Source: Clostridia bacterium
Lineage (GTDB): Bacteria > Bacillota > Clostridia > Christensenellales > Aristaeellaceae
DNA length: 18,948 nucleotides
Direction: 5' to 3'
Assembly: GCA_024404275.1 (NCBI GenBank)
Contig: JAKSQG010000018.1
Location: 1 to 18,948 of the forward strand
Under the pieces are notes generated by a model. That model did no database searches and was not told where the DNA came from. It saw only the letters and a list, made by a program, of their open reading frames with translations. This document shows positions 9,462 through 16,333 of this stretch, one piece after another (the first letter of the stretch is position 1; each line of letters starts with the position of its first letter). A program made the translations under genes and the position numbers.

Positions 9462-9484
9462 GCCATTTGTGCGGAATGGGAAGA

Positions 9485-9504
9485 AAAATGTAACAAAATG
9501 TAAC
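9485..9504 (+). repeat. Perfect tandem 10-bp direct repeat AAAATGTAAC x2, followed by AAA
   Basis: Read directly from the sequence. It ends 15 nt upstream of the candidate -35 of the ABC operon promoter. Confidence 0.9.
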
Positions 9505-9518
9505 AAACGGACAAATCA

Positions 9519-9555
9519 TTGACTTTTGACAGGTAATATTATAAAATGCCATAAA
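9519..9555 (+). promoter_or_regulatory. Candidate sigma-70 promoter of the ABC/catabolic operon
   Basis: TTGACT (9519-9524), a 17-nt spacer, then TAAAAT (9542-9547). The overlapping alternative is TTGACA (9526-9531), an 18-nt spacer, then CATAAA (9550-9555). This leaves a leader of about 90 nt before the GGAGG ribosome-binding site and the ATG at 9643. Confidence 0.55.
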
Positions 9556-9642
9556 AGGGAAATGTATGCCCGAAATCGACATGAATAGGATCAAAACAGG
9601 TGTACATGTCTCTGAAATTCATTTTCTGAAGGAGGATCCCCC

Positions 9643-10584
9643 ATGAAAAAGGTTCTCGCTCTGGTTCTCGCTCTCGTGATGTGTCTGGGCGTTCTGCCCG
9701 CTCTCGCGGCTGATGCTCCCGTCAAGGTCGGCGTGCTCGTGCCCGTCATGACGCATGGCTGGGTCAGCGGCATCACCTATCAGGCTGAAGCTTATGCCAA
9801 GGAACTGGCTGCTGCCGGCACCATCGAGTACAAGCTCACCACCTCCAGCAACGCCGAAGAAATGACCACCCAGATGGATGAAGCCATCCTGTGGGGCGCC
9901 AAGATCCTGGTCATCGCTCCCCAGTGGACCGGCATGGAAGTGCCCGTTCAGAACGCCATCGATCAGGGCCTCATCGTTGTGGCCTTCGATATGGACATCG
10001 ACGCTGACGGCATCCTGAAGGTCACCGGCGACAACAAGTCCATGGGCGTGGCCGGCGCCAAGTTCATCGTGGAAAAGGTTGGCCCCACCGCTACCGTCGT
10101 GGCGCTGCCCGTTCCCACCAGCGGCTCCGTTTCTGAGCTGCGCATGGCCGGCTTCAATGAGACCATCAAGGACATCGCTCCCGAACTGAAGGTCATCGAA
10201 TACGCGACCAAGTTCACCCGTGAGGATGGCCTGAAGGACTTCGCCGATATCCTGGCTGCCAACCCCCAGATCGACGCTGTGTACTCCCTGGATGACGAAA
10301 CCTCCATCGGTGTCCTGCAGGCCATCGAAGATGCCGGCCGTACCGACATCAAGGCCATCACCGGCGGCGGCGGCTGCCAGGAATACTTCGCCATGATCGC
10401 CGAGAACAAGGACATCGCTGTCAGCTCTTCTCTGTACAGCCCCCTGATGATCCGTGACTGCTTCGACGTTGCCCTGGCCAAGCTGGCCGGCGAGCCCGTT
10501 GAGGCCGTGACCGTCATCCCCTCCCAGATCGTGAGCAGCGAAAACGTTGAAAACTACCTCGATCCCAGCAACACCATCTATTAA
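9643..10584 (+). CDS. ABC transporter sugar-binding protein (PBP type I, RbsB-like, CUT2 family)
   Basis: Signal peptide is MKKVLALVLALVMCLGVLPALAADAP. The type I periplasmic-binding fold pattern is present: VGVLVP, ILVIAP, VVAFD, DAVYSLDDETSIGVLQAI. TAA stop. Confidence 0.85.
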   Translation: MKKVLALVLALVMCLGVLPALAADAPVKVGVLVPVMTHGWVSGITYQAEAYAKELAAAGTIEYKLTTSSNAEEMTTQMDEAILWGAKILVIAPQWTGMEVPVQNAIDQGLIVVAFDMDIDADGILKVTGDNKSMGVAGAKFIVEKVGPTATVVALPVPTSGSVSELRMAGFNETIKDIAPELKVIEYATKFTREDGLKDFADILAANPQIDAVYSLDDETSIGVLQAIEDAGRTDIKAITGGGGCQEYFAMIAENKDIAVSSSLYSPLMIRDCFDVALAKLAGEPVEAVTVIPSQIVSSENVENYLDPSNTIY

Positions 10585-10600
10585 TTCAAATGCAATCAAC

Positions 10601-10630
10601 AGGGACTGCCTCCTTCGGGGGGCAGTCCCT
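10601..10630 (+). other. Stable stem-loop without a U-tract after the binding-protein gene
   Basis: AGGGACTGCC-tccttcgggg-GGCAGTCCCT, a perfect 10-bp stem. Confidence 0.8.
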
Positions 10631-10646
10631 AAAACGCGGACAAGCC

Positions 10647-10678
10647 GTTGCGCCTCCGGGGAAGCCCAGAGGCGCAAC
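10647..10678 (+). other. Second stable stem-loop without a U-tract
   Basis: GTTGCGCCTC-cggggaagccca-GAGGCGCAAC, a perfect 10-bp stem. Confidence 0.8.
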
Positions 10679-10762
10679 CCGTATTACTGCACAAAAAGAA
10701 GAAACAAGTGACCTCCCGGTACGCCGCGCGGCGCGCCCGGGGGAAAACAAGGATGTGAAGCC

Positions 10763-12241
10763 ATGAATCTATCCATGAAGGGGATTGTCAAATCCTTCGG
10801 CGCCAATGACGTACTGAAAAAGGTGGATTTTTCACTGGAATCCGGTGAGATCTGCGCCCTGCTGGGAGAGAACGGCGCCGGAAAATCGACCCTGATGAAT
10901 ATCCTGGGCGGTGTCCTTCGACCCGATGCTGGCCAGATCCTGCTGGACGGAAAGCCTGTCACATTCGCTTCTCCGGCACAGTCCCTGAATGCCGGGGTTG
11001 CTTTCATTCATCAGGAGCTGAATCTGATCAACGATCTGCCCGTGTATGAAAACATGTTCATCGGCAGGGAGATCGTCTCCAAAGCCGGGCTCATCAATCA
11101 CAAGGAAGAGCTGAAGCAGACAAAAGAGCTGTTCAGCAAACTGAACATTGATATCGATCCCGCGGTACAGGTGTCCTCCCTGGACGCCAGCTATAAACAG
11201 ATTACCGAAATTTCACGCGCGCTGATGATGGACGCTTCCATTATCATCATGGATGAGCCCACCACCTCCCTGACCGATCCGGAGATCGAGCGCGTTTTTG
11301 ATATGCTCCGTTCCCTCAAAAAACAAAATGTCGGCGTGATCTTCATTTCGCACAAGCTGCGGTAGGTGATGGAGATCTGCGATAAATATGTGGTGCTCCG
11401 CGACGGCAACATGGTGTCCGCCGGCAATGTCAAGGACACCAGCATTGCCGCGCTGTCGCATGACATGGTAGGCCATGATGTGCGCATGGACGCGCTGGAG
11501 CAACGCGCCGCGCGGGGCGGGGAGGTCCTTCGTCTGGAGGATCTGACCCTTGAACCCAGCTACCGCCACATCAACATGCAGGTGTATGCCGGCGAGGTGC
11601 TGGGCGTCACCGGTCTGCTGGGCGACGGGCGCAGCGAGGTCTTCCGCACGGTCTTTGGCGATATGAACAAATACAGCGGCAGGATCTTCCTTTCCGGAAA
11701 GGAAACGGCGATCCGCTCCATTCAGCATGCCATGCAGCTGGGCGTCGGTTATGTGCCGCGCAACCGCAAGGAAAACGCCATTATCAAGGATATGGATATC
11801 CTCGATAACGGCACCATCATCACCATGAAGCAGCTCAGGCGCTTCGGCCTGATCAGCAAGCTGCGGCAGCGGGCCGCCTTCAACAAGCAAAAAGAGGATC
11901 TGCGCATCAAGATGGGCAAGCCCTCCGACCCCATCGGCAGCCTTTCCGGCGGCAATCAGCAAAAGGTCGTTCTGGCCAAATGGCTGATGGCCAAGCCCAA
12001 GCTGCTGGTGCTGGATAACCCGACGCAGGGCGTTGATGTCGGCGCCAAGGAAGAGATCTACGATATTATTCTGCAGCTGGCGGGGCAGGGCGTGGCCGTA
12101 GTGGTGCTGTCCAACGAAGCGCAATAGATCATCCGTGTCTGCAGCCGTGCCCTGGTCATGTACCACGGGGATATCTGCGGTGAGGTTTCCGGCAGCACCA
12201 TGACCGAAGACAACATCATGCGCATGGCCACCGGCGGCTGA
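10763..12241 (+). CDS. CUT2-family sugar ABC transporter ATP-binding protein with tandem NBDs (RbsA/MglA-like, 492 aa). Contains in-frame TAGs at 11363-11365 and 12125-12127.
   Basis: ORFs 10763..11365 and 11366..12127 and the 38-codon tail to the TGA at 12239-12241 all share one frame. NBD1 has GENGAGKST, IIIMDEPT and FISH. NBD2 has GLLGDGRSE, LSGGNQQKV and LLVLDNPT. The total length matches RbsA-type proteins. Confidence 0.9.
11363..11365 (+). other. In-frame TAG codon just after the NBD1 H-loop (candidate sense codon)
   Basis: Context is GVIFISHKLR-TAG-VMEICDKYVVLRDG. As I recall it, E. coli RbsA reads [25 protein letters not shown], which places Glu at this position. Confidence 0.85.
12125..12127 (+). 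other. In-frame TAG codon after the NBD2 H-loop position (candidate sense codon)
   Basis: Context is VVVLSNEAQ-TAG-IIRVCSRALVMYHGDICGEV. As I recall it, RbsA reads [30 protein letters not shown], which places Glu at this position. Confidence 0.85.
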
Positions 12242-12291
12242 TCTCCAAAGAGCGATTCATAAGATTACATCCATCCCGGAGGAAGATTGTT

Positions 12292-13323
12292 ATGACGATT
12301 GAAAAACGCAAAAATCCTCTTCGCCAGTTTGTTGACAAGTGGCAGGAGAATCCCCTTATTTCGACCGGTACCGTGCTGATCCTGATGATCATCATCCAGA
12401 CGATCGCGCTGGGCTTCAATTATGCCAGCTTCGGTGAATGGTTTACCAACTGGGGCAAAAACTGGATCAACATCCTGCGCAACAACGCCGGCGTCGGCAT
12501 TGTCGCCCTGGGCATGACGTTTGTCATCATTTCCGGCGGTATCGATCTGGCGGTCGGTTCCACGCTGGTGGCGGTCGGCGCCATCATGATGGTGCTGATC
12601 AACAGCAATGCGGCGGGCGTATTGACGGCCGTCGGCATTACCGGCGTTCCCGCCTTCATCATCGGCATCGCGGCGGCTCTGCTTGCCGGCGCAGCCATTG
12701 GCGGCATCAACGGCGTGCTGATCGCGCGCAGTAAAATTCCCGCCTTCATTGCCACGCTGGGTATGATGAAGATCTGCCGCAGCGTGACGCAGCAGTTCAT
12801 GCAGACGGTCGGCGTGAAGGTGCCCAGGGATTTCCTTGCCATCGCCAACACACGCATCGGCGGCGAGATCATTCTGCCCATCATCTATTGGTTTGTGATC
12901 GCGCTGCTGCTGCACATCGTCTCCAAGCGGACGACCTTCGGCCGTCATGTCTATGCCATCGGTTCCAATGAGCGCGCCGCCCGCCTGTCCGGCGTCAATG
13001 TCGAGCGCGTAAAGACCCTGATCTATGTGCTGTCCGGCGTGCTGGTGGCCATCACCGCGGTCATCCAGATTGCCCGTATCGGCAGCATGGACTACGCCAA
13101 CGCGGGCAGCGGCTACGAAATGGATGCCATCGCCGCGGTCGTGGTCGGCGGCACCAGCATGAGCGGCGGCAAGGGCTCCATTCTGGGCACGGTGCTGGGC
13201 ATGCTCATCATCGCCGTTATGAATAACCTGCTCAACCTGATCGGCGTACCGCCCTTCCTGCGTGAGGCCTTCAAGGGCTTCATCGTGGTGGCGGCCGTGA
13301 TGCTGCAGAAGAAGGAAAAATAA
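12292..13323 (+). CDS. Sugar ABC transporter permease (RbsC/AraH-like)
   Basis: 343-aa polytopic membrane protein with a GGAGGA ribosome-binding site. Family motifs are GGIDLAVGS, RSKIPAFIATLGMM, AIGSNERAARLSGVNV and GGTSMSGGKGSILGT. TAA stop. Confidence 0.9.
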   Translation: MTIEKRKNPLRQFVDKWQENPLISTGTVLILMIIIQTIALGFNYASFGEWFTNWGKNWINILRNNAGVGIVALGMTFVIISGGIDLAVGSTLVAVGAIMMVLINSNAAGVLTAVGITGVPAFIIGIAAALLAGAAIGGINGVLIARSKIPAFIATLGMMKICRSVTQQFMQTVGVKVPRDFLAIANTRIGGEIILPIIYWFVIALLLHIVSKRTTFGRHVYAIGSNERAARLSGVNVERVKTLIYVLSGVLVAITAVIQIARIGSMDYANAGSGYEMDAIAAVVVGGTSMSGGKGSILGTVLGMLIIAVMNNLLNLIGVPPFLREAFKGFIVVAAVMLQKKEK

Positions 13324-13347
13324 TTGATTCGGAAATGAGGTGCTCCT

Positions 13348-14385
13348 ATGATTCGTGTTGGCATTGCGGGCTGCGGCAAGATTGCCCAGGTCCGCCATCT
13401 GCCGGAATATCAGGCGAACCCGGATGCACAGATTTAGGGCCTGTTTGACCTCAACGCCGGGCGCGCGGCAGGGCTTGCGGCTCAGTACGGCGCAACGGCG
13501 TATGATACCTTTGAAAGCATGCTGGCCGATCCCATGATCGATGCCGTCAGCATCTGCACGGCCAATGCCGCGCACGCGCAGATGGCCATTGCCGCCCTGA
13601 AGGCGGGCAAGCATGTGCTTTGCGAAAAACCGATGGCCATCACGCTGGCCGACTGTGAGGAGATGGTACGTGTCGCAAAGGAATGCGGCAAGGTGCTGAT
13701 GATCGGTCAGAACCAGCGGCTGGCGGCGGCGCATCAGAAGGCGTATGAGCTGATCCGCAGCGGCGCTATTGGCAGGGTGATCACTTTTACCACCGCCTTC
13801 CGTCATGGCGGACCGGAGACCTGGAGCGTGGATTCCGGCAGCGGTACCTGGTTCTTTGACAAGACTCATGCCGCCTTTGGCGCCATGGCCGATCTGGGTG
13901 TGCACAAAACGGACCTGATCCAGTACCTGCTGGGGCAGACGGTGACCAAGGTGACCGCCTACCTCGGGTCGCTCGACAAGAAAACGCCGGATGGAAAGCC
14001 GATCTCGGTGGATGACAATGCCATCTGCATTTATCACATGAGCGGCGGTGCTGTGGGGACCATGACGGCCTCCTGGACCGATTACAGCGGCGAGGACAAC
14101 GCCACCGTGCTGTTTGGCACGGAGGGCGTGATGCGCATCTATGACGACCCCATGCACAGCATCGTGCTGAGCAAGCGTGACGGCACGACCGAATATTATG
14201 ACGTCGACCGGATTCAGACCAACGACAATCAGACCAGCTCGGGCATCATCGATCTGTTTGTGGCGCATCTGATCGATCCGACCAAGCCGTACATTTCCGC
14301 CGAGAGCGTGCTGCCGGCCATGCGTGCCGTGTTTGCAGCCGCCGAATCCGCCGAAACGGGCCGCATCGTGGCTACGAACGCGTGA
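13348..14385 (+). CDS. Gfo/Idh/MocA-family NAD(P)-dependent oxidoreductase (345 aa). Contains an in-frame TAG at 13435-13437.
   Basis: The ATG at 13348 has GAGG 7 nt upstream. The N-terminus MIRVGIAGCGKIAQVRHLPEY carries the Rossmann GxGxxG motif. After the TAG the same frame continues GLFDLNAGRAAGLAAQYG...VLCEKPMA into ORF 13519..14385. TGA stop. Confidence 0.88.
13435..13437 (+). other. In-frame TAG codon in Rossmann strand beta-2 (candidate sense codon)
   Basis: Context is NPDAQI-TAG-GLFDLN. The family pattern is p.aelvavcD, and this position is variable across the family. Confidence 0.8.
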
Positions 14386-14396
14386 GGAGAAGCACC

Positions 14397-15212
14397 ATGG
14401 ACAGAATCGTTGCAATGAATTCCAACAGCTATCATGGCTTTTCTATCGAGGAGGCCATTGAGGGCACTGCACGGGCGGGCTTCCGCTATATGGAATTGAC
14501 GGCCACCAAGGGGTGGACAGAGCATGTTTTCCCCGATCAGCCCCTGCGCCGTCTGCTGCGTGTGCGGGATATGCTTCGCGATCATGACCTGACCCCGTTT
14601 GCCATGAGCGGTCACACCAACCTGACCGACCCTGCCCGCAGCCGCGATTTTAGGGACAACATCCGTATGGCGCAGCTTTTCGGCTGCCGCTACATTGTTT
14701 CCTCCATCGGCGAGGCACACATCCGGGACGGGCATGAGGCCGATCTGGATGAAACGGTGCGCTGCATCGAAGCCTTTGTGCCCGAGTTGAAGGCGGCGGA
14801 TATGATGCTGGTGCTGGAAACGCACGGGAAGGATCACGGCACAGGCGTCCGTCTGGCTTAGATCGTGCGGAAGGTGAACAGCGATCGGGTCAAAGTGAAC
14901 TACGACACGGCCAACGTCGTGTTTTACGGCCGGGTCGACCCGGTGGAGGATCTCAAGGCCTGCGTGAACGATGTGGCATTTTTGCACATCAAGGACAAGG
15001 CTGGCGCTGCGGACGAGTGGAATTTCCCCGCCCCCGGCAAGGGTTATATTGATTTTGACGGCATCTTTGATGTGCTGAATCAAAACGGCAACAACAGCCC
15101 CTTCTCGGTCGAGATCGAGTTCACAGCGGCCGGTCCTTCCAACCTTGAAGAGGTGAATCAGGCGGTACGCGACAGCGCGGCGTTCTTCCGCGCTCACGGC
15201 ATCGCCCTGTAA
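14397..15212 (+). CDS. Sugar phosphate isomerase/epimerase (xylose-isomerase-like TIM barrel, 271 aa). Contains an in-frame TAG at 14859-14861.
   Basis: GAGGAG lies ahead of the ATG at 14397. ORFs 14382..14861 and 14865..15212 share a frame. The pattern LVLETHG ... TAG ... VNYDTANVVFYG ... FLHIKD ... SVEIEF places the barrel's conserved acidic and His residues on both sides of the TAG. TAA stop. Confidence 0.88.
14859..14861 (+). other. In-frame TAG codon in the middle of the TIM barrel (candidate sense codon)
   Basis: Context is HGTGVRLA-TAG-IVRKVNSDRVKVNYDTAN. Confidence 0.8.
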
Positions 15213-15291
15213 TGATTAAAACACATCATCCCCCGTGGCAGACGGAACGGTGTTTGCGGCGGGGGATTGCTGTCATCAGGAGGAAGATCAG

Positions 15292-16257
15292 ATGAATATT
15301 CTGCTTGTCGGCGCCGGCGGCATGGGCACAACGCACTACAACAACTATCGTCAAATCGACGGCGCGCAGGTCGCCGCCCTGGTGGGAACCACTCAGCAGG
15401 ATCGTGATACCGCTCAGGGCTGGGGCATTCCCTGCTTTGAATCGATCGCACAGGCGGTGCAGGCGGTGGCGGTCGATGCGGCGGATATCTGCGTGCCCAC
15501 CTATCTGCACAAGGAGCTGGCGCTGCAGGCGTTTGCCTGCGGGCTGCATGTGATCTGCGAAAAGCCCTGCGCCCTGAGCCTTGCGGATGGCCGGCAAATG
15601 TTTGAAGCAGCCAAAGCCGCGCACCGGCAGCTGTATGTCGCCCAGGTGGTTCGTTTTACACCGGAAACGGCGGTTCTGCGCCGGGTGATCGAAGAAAAAA
15701 CCTATGGCGCGCCGGTGGACGCGGTCTTTGAGCGGCTGAGCGCCCGCCCCGCGTGGACGCAGGGCTCGTGGCTCATGGAGAAGGAAAAGAGCGGTCTGCT
15801 GCCCTTTGATCTGCACATTCACGATCTCGATCTGGCGGTCAGCCTGTTCGGCGCGCCAAGCGAGGTGCTCATCGCTGCCGAGCACGCCGACGGCGGCCTT
15901 CCGACGCAATGCCGTCTGACCTACAAGTGGGCGGATGGCATGACCGCCTCCGCGGAGGCGGCATGGTTCAATGCCTGCATTCCCTTTACCGCGCGCTGGC
16001 GGGTCAGCTTTGAAAAAGGCATGCTCATCTATGACGGCGAATCCGTCAAGGGCTATGACGCCGCCGGACAGACCGTGACCTATGACACCACCGATCCGGT
16101 CATGATCCCCGGCGGGGCGAACCTTCCCGCCAATGGCTGGTTCTATCGCGAGCTGAGCCATTTTGTCGCCTGTGCGCAGCAGAACACTCCCTCACCGATC
16201 GTGACCGAAGAGCAGGTGCTCGCCGTGCTTTCGGTGCTTGAAGAGATTTCCACCTGA
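15292..16257 (+). CDS. Gfo/Idh/MocA-family oxidoreductase (second copy, 321 aa)
   Basis: AGGAGG lies 8 nt upstream of the ATG at 15292. The N-terminus MNILLVGAGGMG is a Rossmann motif, and VICEKPCA is the family EKP motif. The longer ORF starting at 15235 lacks a ribosome-binding site. TGA stop plus terminator. Confidence 0.85.
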   Translation: MNILLVGAGGMGTTHYNNYRQIDGAQVAALVGTTQQDRDTAQGWGIPCFESIAQAVQAVAVDAADICVPTYLHKELALQAFACGLHVICEKPCALSLADGRQMFEAAKAAHRQLYVAQVVRFTPETAVLRRVIEEKTYGAPVDAVFERLSARPAWTQGSWLMEKEKSGLLPFDLHIHDLDLAVSLFGAPSEVLIAAEHADGGLPTQCRLTYKWADGMTASAEAAWFNACIPFTARWRVSFEKGMLIYDGESVKGYDAAGQTVTYDTTDPVMIPGGANLPANGWFYRELSHFVACAQQNTPSPIVTEEQVLAVLSVLEEIST

Positions 16258-16272
16258 CGGGGCGGGTAAACA

Positions 16273-16309
16273 AAAGGACATCGCCATTGGATACATGGCG
16301 ATGTCCTTT
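16273..16309. terminator. Bidirectional rho-independent terminator between convergent genes
   Basis: AAAGGACATCGCCAT-tggatac-ATGGCGATGTCCTTT, a perfect 15-bp stem. The A-rich 5' flank and T-rich 3' flank (TTTGCTTTTGC) allow it to function on both strands. Confidence 0.85.
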
Positions 16310-16333
16310 GCTTTTGCAAAAGGGGAAAGGCTG

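Follow-up and report, generated by a model that had tools for sequence, protein, structure and literature searches.

We analyzed a stretch of 18,948 nucleotides (nt) from a Clostridia bacterium of the family Aristaeellaceae (assembly GCA_024404275.1, contig JAKSQG010000018.1, positions 1 to 18,948 of the forward strand), which is referred to here as the window. The subject is a gene on the + strand at positions 14397..15212, which encodes a xylose-isomerase-like TIM-barrel protein of the sugar phosphate isomerase/epimerase family and is interrupted by an in-frame TAG at codon 155 (14859..14861, + strand). When translation table 11 was applied, the gene appeared as two open reading frames (ORFs), 14382-14861 and 14865-15212. 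The first-pass annotation had proposed instead that it encodes one protein of 271 amino acids (aa) in which the TAG is translated. The TAG was indeed found to lie in a single frame that runs from an ATG at 14397 to a TAA stop at 15210-15212, and the sequence motifs were where they had been placed, with LVLETHG (residues 138-144) before the TAG and NYDTAN (168-173), LHIKD (196-200), and SVEIEF (237-242) after it. One detail was incorrect, as GTG had been given as the sole codon directly following the TAG. The next codon is ATC (14862-14864), and the GTG at 14865 opens the second ORF.

The pieces on either side of the TAG were searched with Pfam profiles, both separately and joined. The N-terminal piece matched PF01261 (AP_endonuc_2; curated cut-off, 31.1 bits) at positions 4-132 and the C-terminal piece matched it at positions 146-248, while the joined 271-aa sequence gave a match in a single stretch at positions 4-248/249 with an E value of 2e-30 and a score of 106.6 bits. 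The two partial matches and the joined match together indicate that the interruption of one domain by the TAG did not arise by chance. An AlphaFold2 model of the joined protein, built on an alignment of homologues with Glu placed at position 155, was a single eight-stranded barrel with a predicted local distance difference test score of 94.5 and a predicted template modeling score of 0.92. In this model, codon 155 belongs to helix alpha5 (residues 150-160), which follows strand 5 (137-141) and precedes strand 6 (165-170), and the glutamate that is most likely inserted there would lie on a surface helix. The best matches of the model in a Foldseek search were ketose 3-epimerases, UlaE, and SCO6571, with template modeling (TM) scores of about 0.77, and the matches as a group, which included a 3-keto-glucal hydratase, had TM scores of 0.72-0.79, probabilities of 1.00, and sequence identities of 13-19% to the solved members. 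The protein encoded at 2970-3890 of the window had been suggested as an intact paralogue for comparison. It does belong to the same Pfam family, and the relationship is remote (22% identity over 94 aa, E value of 0.019); the comparison gave no information because the two proteins are too distant.

Homologues of the isomerase were collected from a search space of 5.8 billion proteins. At a threshold E value of 1e-20 or lower, 904 were found, and the best 120 of these 904 were 59-77% identical to it. Each of these 120 is a single chain, with a length of 268-273 aa in nearly every case, and no barrel encoded as two genes was found among them; those that carry a name are called 'sugar phosphate isomerase/epimerase' and come from Clostridia metagenome-assembled genomes (MAGs) and Candidatus Limiplasma. 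Four positions that are conserved in an alignment of 48 sequences are presumably the metal ligands, an assignment that we make by motif analogy with the Glu-Asp-His-Glu positions at the strand ends of ketose 3-epimerases. They are Glu141 of LVLETHG (codon 14817..14819), Asp170 of NYDTAN (14904..14906), His197 of LHIKD (14985..14987), and Glu239 of SVEIEF (15111..15113), all on the + strand. Glu141, His197, and Glu239 are invariant in the 48 sequences, and Asp170, whose motif aligns with NFDPAN of the structure 3tva in the PDB, is at least 90% conserved. The putative ligands are therefore distributed on both sides of the TAG as had been noted, with one before it and three after it.

An alternative reading of the two ORFs is that the barrel is naturally split, with separate polypeptides of 154 aa and 115 aa (the latter starting from GTG 14865) that assemble after synthesis. 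The position of the GTG, two codons past the TAG, would suit such an arrangement. However, the homologues listed above are single chains, the break would cut through helix alpha5, and there is no Shine-Dalgarno-like purine run just 5' of GTG 14865. In addition, release of the N-terminal piece at the UAG would require release factor 1 (RF1), which is missing from this genome as described below. Taken together, these observations make a split barrel highly improbable.

To examine the history of the gene, the MAG that contains the window (designated G000; 1.57 Mb in 173 contigs, 57% GC, 75% complete, estimated size about 2 Mb) was compared with 40 relatives, making 41 genomes in all. A close orthologue of the isomerase was present in only one of the 40, the MAG of a sister species in the same genus (G006; 81% complete), whose protein is 96% identical and has TAG at the same codon. 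Orthologues from two other genera are 45-47% identical, free of internal stops, and have Asn at the position of the TAG. The window is syntenic with contig C93 of G006 at 90-92% nucleotide identity, a divergence of about 8%. Signs of decay in the second half of the gene were sought in the sister genome, and the orthologue was found to have kept the TAG and to have neither a frameshift nor any further stop. Ratios of nonsynonymous to synonymous substitution rates (dN/dS) between the two species were calculated by the Nei-Gojobori method. For the isomerase, dN/dS was 0.072 over the whole gene, 0.109 for residues 1-154, and 0.046 for residues 156-271, where there were 29 synonymous and 6 nonsynonymous substitutions and a dS of 0.51. 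The genes of the window gave values of 0.02-0.18. The value of 0.046 after the TAG demonstrates strong purifying selection on the C-terminal half of the isomerase and rules out a decaying pseudogene. The single domain, the fold, the purifying selection, and the one-chain homologues all support the proposal that 14397-15212 is a single intact gene encoding one 271-aa protein, with its TAG translated.

The same comparison bears on whether the TAG could be an error of sequencing or assembly. G000 is a fragmented MAG (173 contigs, 75% complete), which speaks for an error, but the same TAG is present in the independently assembled genome of another species, and in-frame TAGs are found on many contigs. 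We consider the probability of an error here to be negligible.

The isomerase was not the only interrupted gene in the window. Eight in-frame TAGs were found in 6 of its 12 genes, and the in-frame stops were always TAG and never TAA or TGA. Conversely, TAG did not end any of the genes, of which 5 end in TAA and 7 in TGA. A two-domain sugar ABC transporter ATPase of 492 aa (10763..12241, + strand) has full-length Pfam and NCBIfam matches and contains two TAGs (11363-11365 and 12125-12127). At codon 201 G000 has TAG and G006 has GAG, and at codon 455 G000 has TAG and G006 has GAA; the residue at both positions is Glu in a congener that uses the standard code (G007). A GGDEF/EAL/PAS signaling protein identified by Pfam (230..2872, - strand) also contains two, at 326-328 and at 2855-2857, although the latter may precede the true start. 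The site at 326-328 is GAG in G006, and a conserved in-frame tail extends beyond it. The exchange was found in the opposite direction at 2105-2107 of this gene (- strand), where G000 has GAG and G006 has TAG. A third protein, of 1417 aa (4113..8366, + strand), has a signal peptide, Cna_B and FctA isopeptide domains, and a C-terminal PDTGD sorting motif followed by a hydrophobic stretch and an Arg-rich tail, features that point to a putative cell-wall-anchored surface protein. Its TAGs at 6168-6170 and 8190-8192 separate the signal peptide from the sorting signal and must be read through for both to be on one chain. Nothing in the G006 contig, which is otherwise syntenic, corresponds to region 4028-8382, which includes this gene, and this 4.3-kb segment thus represents an insertion or a deletion between the sister species.

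Directly upstream of the isomerase lies a GFO/IDH/MocA oxidoreductase gene of 345 aa (13348..14385, + strand) with a TAG at codon 30 (13435-13437), and its Rossmann domain (1-119/120) is whole only when this TAG is read through. G006 has TGG (Trp) at this codon, and the Zymomonas GFOR has Glu there. Under the new code, the TAG/TGG pair probably amounts to no more than a missense difference. This was the single site in the window outside the pattern of exchange between TAG and the Glu codons GAR.

These genes are relevant to a further alternative, in which the isomerase became a pseudogene by a nonsense mutation and its downstream half is untranslated. The frame is interrupted under table 11, and the adjacent MocA gene also has a TAG where the sister species has Trp, which count in its favor. 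Such a reading is nonetheless very unlikely, since purifying selection continues past the TAG, the TAG is kept in G006 with no frameshifts or additional stops, and all of the catalytic motifs are intact. The ABC ATPase and other genes also show a like 'defect' that is always TAG, and the gene for RF1 has been deleted.

The absence of RF1 was established both by profile searches and by gene order. RF2 is present in G000. Apart from G018, which gave no match at all, all of the relatives searched had an RF1 score that exceeded or came close to the family cut-off, while in G000 and G006 the RF1 profile found only a cross-match to RF2. A tblastn search of G000 with the RF1 of G007 detected only prfB. 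In G007 and G012, the latter also a congener, the genes are ordered lepA-prfA-topB, and prfA also follows lepA in G004; at this locus, prfA has short spacers in G012 and is accompanied by about 0.9 kb in G007. In both G000 and G006, a single contig contains lepA and topB with only 20-21 nt between them. In G000 (contig C79), lepA occupies 17220-19025, topB begins at 19047, and the junction is 19026-19046; in G006 (contig C35), the junction is at L104 4268-4287. Because lepA and topB are adjacent on single contigs in both species, the absence of prfA is not due to an assembly gap. The gene order indicates a clean deletion of prfA in the ancestor that G000 and G006 share. The lepA-topB junction is a clean deletion scar that is usable as a marker of the recoded clade, either by polymerase chain reaction or in sequencing reads.

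A candidate decoder of UAG was also found. ARAGORN identified a 76-nt tRNA with the anticodon CUA on contig C117 of G000 (5836-5911, - strand). The gene is identical in G000 and G006, and none was found in the other 39 relatives. Its alignment with tRNA-Glu(CUC) genes from the genus and family needed no gaps. Like them, it is 76 nt long and has the D arm GTCTAGTGG..AGGAC, a variable loop of 4 nt, G73, and a G1-U72 pair, and its anticodon loop, CT-CTN-AA, departs from theirs at base 36 only. Its body is unlike those of the neighboring tRNA-Gln(CUG) and of the tRNA-Gln(UUG) of the genome. When the tRNAs of G000 itself were ranked by global identity to tRNA(CUA), the result was uninformative; it was the tRNA-Glu(CUC) genes of the relatives that were informative. 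G006 contains both a normal tRNA-Glu(CUC) and the CUA tRNA (G006:C97:31697-31726 and G006:C50:8748-8823), and the normal gene there presumably adjoins tRNA-Gln(CUG) as it does in the relatives. Since the normal tRNA has been kept, the CUA gene is an extra copy, and since it differs from the normal tRNA-Glu(CUC) of G006 in both the acceptor stem and the anticodon stem, it arose as a duplicate that diverged or was acquired, and does not represent a sole copy that was converted. The genes near tRNA(CUA) in G000 encode an amylase, a helicase, and an ABC transporter, an ordinary chromosomal context without phage genes. Beside it, at G000:C117:2668-5565, is a gene with one in-frame TAG for a 966-aa protein with PLD-like, ResIII helicase, and DUF3427 regions, possibly a defense-type nuclease-helicase.

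The program labels this tRNA 'tRNA-Pyl' on the basis of its anticodon, and pyrrolysine use is known in some Firmicutes, which raises the question of whether TAG encodes pyrrolysine. Profiles for the pyrrolysine machinery, which were positive in a Methanosarcina control, scored far below their cut-offs in these two incomplete MAGs. PylS_Cterm gave 23.8 bits in G000 and 23.9 bits in G006 against a cut-off of 178, and PylB gave 18 bits against 348. Furthermore, tRNA(CUA) is a normal 76-nt cloverleaf of the Glu type, and the TAG sites are at Glu and Asp positions of unrelated proteins, not in methyltransferases. We regard pyrrolysine as an exceedingly improbable assignment.

The identity of the encoded amino acid was examined in two sets of alignments. 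The first compared G000 with G007, which has RF1 and lacks a CUA tRNA. A total of 692 kb of G007 was compared using the best-scoring nonoverlapping frames that are stop free in G007, a filter that was needed as unfiltered tallies of TAG were dominated by conserved antisense noncoding frames ('*' and Tyr). The resulting 258 orthologue pairs and 81,661 columns contained 24 in-frame TAGs in G000, which were aligned with Glu in 11 cases, Asp in 4, and nine other residues once each. At 70% identity or more, the counts were five Glu and one Lys. In a likelihood calculation from these alignments, Glu ranked first, 17 nats ahead of Asp. The reverse search gave 12 Glu and 6 Asp among 24; its TAA and TGA control was noisy, with residual noncoding frames. 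A genome-wide count of stops with a long open segment on each side showed only a mild excess of TAG and was not diagnostic.

The second comparison, between G000 and G006, covered 132 ORFs and 46,238 codons with third-position-biased divergence, in which TAG was found in one or both genomes at 59 sites. Strict filtering left 26 of these, made up of 12 TAG/GAG, 6 TAG/TAG, 4 TAG/CAG, 3 TAG/GAA, and 1 TAG/TAT pairs. Exchange with Glu codons thus dominated, including the two-step change to GAA, even though T/G is a transversion. Only 6 of the 26 strict sites have TAG in both species, demonstrating that turnover between TAG and GAG is fast, as expected of synonymous codons. The predominance of Glu-codon exchange combined with the Glu-type body of the tRNA makes glutamate the best reading of UAG and glutamine the main alternative, and UAG is most likely read as glutamate in G000.

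Several observations weigh against this conclusion or against the strength of its support. Both G000 and G006 are incomplete MAGs (75% and 81%), and the amino acid was deduced from alignments and the tRNA body. At the isomerase TAG itself, Asp is preferred to Glu in the homologues. The column in 47 of them has Asp in 29, Glu in 10, Ser in 4, and Asn, Arg, and Pro in 1 each, so that 39 of 47 are acidic; the TAG aligns with Glu in PDB entry 3tva and with Arg in 2zvr, and the orthologues from the two other genera have Asn. These alignments suggest that the site would be better described as 'acidic or polar surface' than as specifically Glu. None of 201 orthologues in G000 ends in TAG, a result that carries little weight by itself, given that TAG ends only 4 of the 201 in G007. 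The charging of the tRNA is a further difficulty. The gene for glutamyl-tRNA synthetase (GluRS), gltX, is not in the G000 assembly, and the enzyme was therefore examined in G006 (L068), where it is about 83% identical to those of its congeners and has kept the motif ELMQGRTEVF. The Arg of this motif aligns with R358 of T. thermophilus, which we take to be the residue that recognizes C36, and compared to G007, G008, and G012, no clade-specific change was found at this Arg. A second GluRS was sought in G006 and was not found; a weaker GluRS-like match that adjoins GluRS, as it does in the congeners, is probably glutaminyl-tRNA synthetase. With no change at this Arg and no second GluRS, the charging of a tRNA with A36 is difficult to account for.

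The last of these observations is also compatible with a reading in which TAG is a sense codon but is translated as glutamine, as another residue, or ambiguously. Glutamine is suggested as well by the CAG codons that make up 4 of the 20 nonidentical TAG pairs between G000 and G006 and by the TAG recoding of phages, which is usually to Gln (PMC10879173), while the TAG that corresponds to TGG in G006 could be taken to indicate another residue. On the other hand, Gln was never aligned with TAG in either G007 comparison, against 11-12 Glu and 4-6 Asp, and TAG/GAG and TAG/GAA pairs together exceeded TAG/CAG by 15 to 4 although T/C is a transition. The body of tRNA(CUA) is of the tRNA-Glu(CUC) type rather than that of tRNA-Gln(CUG) or tRNA-Gln(UUG). 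On balance, we consider a residue other than glutamate, or ambiguous decoding, to be unlikely.

Our interpretation is that G000 and G006 have ceased to use UAG as a stop and that the whole genome would read TAG as sense. With prfA deleted, nothing would recognize UAG for termination; the extra tRNA(CUA), derived from the tRNA-Glu(CUC) of the family, would insert glutamate at UAG, GluRS would charge this tRNA, and the decoding of UAG would be complete. Under these conditions, the gene at 14397-15212 very probably encodes one functional 271-aa metal-dependent (beta/alpha)8 enzyme, with UAG translated, most likely as Glu, and RF1 lost. It is also quite likely that the two species form a clade of uncultured Clostridia with a natural UAG = Glu code that arose by a recent duplication of tRNA-Glu(CUC), a change of C36 to A, and the deletion of prfA, and on which several hundred genes depend. 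The 4 of 201 genes ending in TAG in G007 indicate that TAG terminators had been nearly purged in the genus before the reassignment, which fits a codon-capture route.

The surroundings of the isomerase provide some indication of its function. A LacI-type regulator (8440-9423), a sugar-binding protein (9643-10584), and a permease (12292-13323), all on the + strand and identified by Pfam and NCBIfam matches, precede it along with the ATPase and the upstream MocA dehydrogenase, and a second GFO/IDH/MocA oxidoreductase of 321 aa (15292..16257, + strand), which is TAG free and ends in TGA, lies directly downstream. The gene order is LacI regulator, sugar-binding protein, ATPase, permease, MocA dehydrogenase, TIM barrel, MocA dehydrogenase, and the LacI-regulated sugar ABC transporter and oxidoreductase genes around the isomerase form a putative operon. 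None of the NCBIfam equivalogs searched (L-ribulose-5-P 3-epimerase, IolO, and IolE) supplied an enzyme name for the isomerase, the best score being 30.5 bits against a cut-off of 200. The upstream MocA dehydrogenase gave matches to the models for inositol 2-dehydrogenase and levoglucosan dehydrogenase that fell short of the cut-offs, and GFOR, DgpA, and related sugar C3 dehydrogenases were among the solved structures that it matched. By analogy with pathways for 3-keto sugars, the isomerase may isomerize, epimerize, or eliminate on a keto-sugar, possibly a 3-keto sugar produced by the flanking MocA dehydrogenases. It resembles the PF01261 barrels (ketose 3-epimerases, UlaE, and 3-keto-sugar hydratases/eliminases) in its fold, its E-D-H-E positions, and its size, and its pairing with MocA dehydrogenases resembles the DgpA-type and levoglucosan-type 3-keto-sugar pathways. 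It differs from the solved members in its low identity to them and in the lack of an equivalog model near threshold. The isomerase itself is an ordinary enzyme; the genetic code that it reveals is the remarkable part.

The code changes already described in bacteria differ from the one proposed here. A Codetta survey of more than 250,000 genomes states that all known bacterial code changes reassign UGA (PMC8629427), and a 2026 paper on Eggerthellaceae describes only UGA-to-Trp cases, with loss of RF2 as their signature (PMC13462651). In our search of the literature, all of the stop reassignments described for bacteria concerned UGA and RF2, and no natural bacterium was found to have been reported as reading UAG as Glu or as having lost RF1. 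The bacterial UGA codes are table 4 (UGA to Trp, in Mycoplasmatales, some endosymbionts, and Eggerthellaceae MAGs) and table 25 (UGA to Gly, in Gracilibacteria/Absconditabacteria). They are similar to the code proposed here in that a stop became sense in the chromosome, the cognate release factor was lost, and a matching tRNA was gained, and also in that the reassigned stop is already rare in close relatives (PMC13462651; G007 in this case). They differ in the codon (here UAG), the release factor (RF1 rather than RF2), and the amino acid (Glu), and the genome considered here, with 57% GC and about 2 Mb, is neither small nor AT rich.

Other systems share individual features with it. Nuclear codes in which UAR is read as Glu occur in peritrich ciliates (table 30) and Blastocrithidia (table 31), and in the latter a suppressor derived from tRNA-Glu reads UAG as glutamate, as proposed for G000 (PMC12153298). 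These are eukaryotes with eRF1, however, and UAA is reassigned in them as well, whereas G000 keeps UAA as a stop, as in 5 of the 12 window genes. TAG-recoded gut phages (crAss-like, Lak, and others) likewise have in-frame TAGs in intact genes and a suppressor tRNA(CUA), but they are viruses in which TAG usually becomes Gln and whose hosts retain the standard code. In G000, by comparison, it is metabolic and housekeeping genes of the chromosome that contain the TAGs, the tRNA, which is of the Glu type, lies in a chromosomal context, and the cell has lost its own RF1. In engineered RF1-free, TAG-free E. coli, prfA was removed and UAG was freed for an amino acid (PMC4434889, PMC4333366). That strain is synthetic, and G000 would be its natural counterpart, in which UAG has been refilled with a canonical amino acid.

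If the interpretation is correct, this would be the first time that a reassignment of UAG, or a natural state without RF1, has been reported for a bacterial chromosome. Annotation with table 11 splits a working isomerase into two fragments or makes it a pseudogene, and does likewise with the ABC ATPase, the MocA dehydrogenase, and the 1417-aa protein. As a consequence of this splitting of intact genes, the gene catalogues of the lineage are systematically wrong. The change of UAG to Glu, if true, is young, with an ordinary genome size, congeners that use the standard code, a donor tRNA that has been kept, and a scar of RF1 deletion that is still visible. The clade would then be a rare natural system in which to test codon-capture against ambiguous-intermediate models, and it would provide a natural source of a UAG-decoding tRNA and of RF1-free chassis logic for genetic-code engineering.

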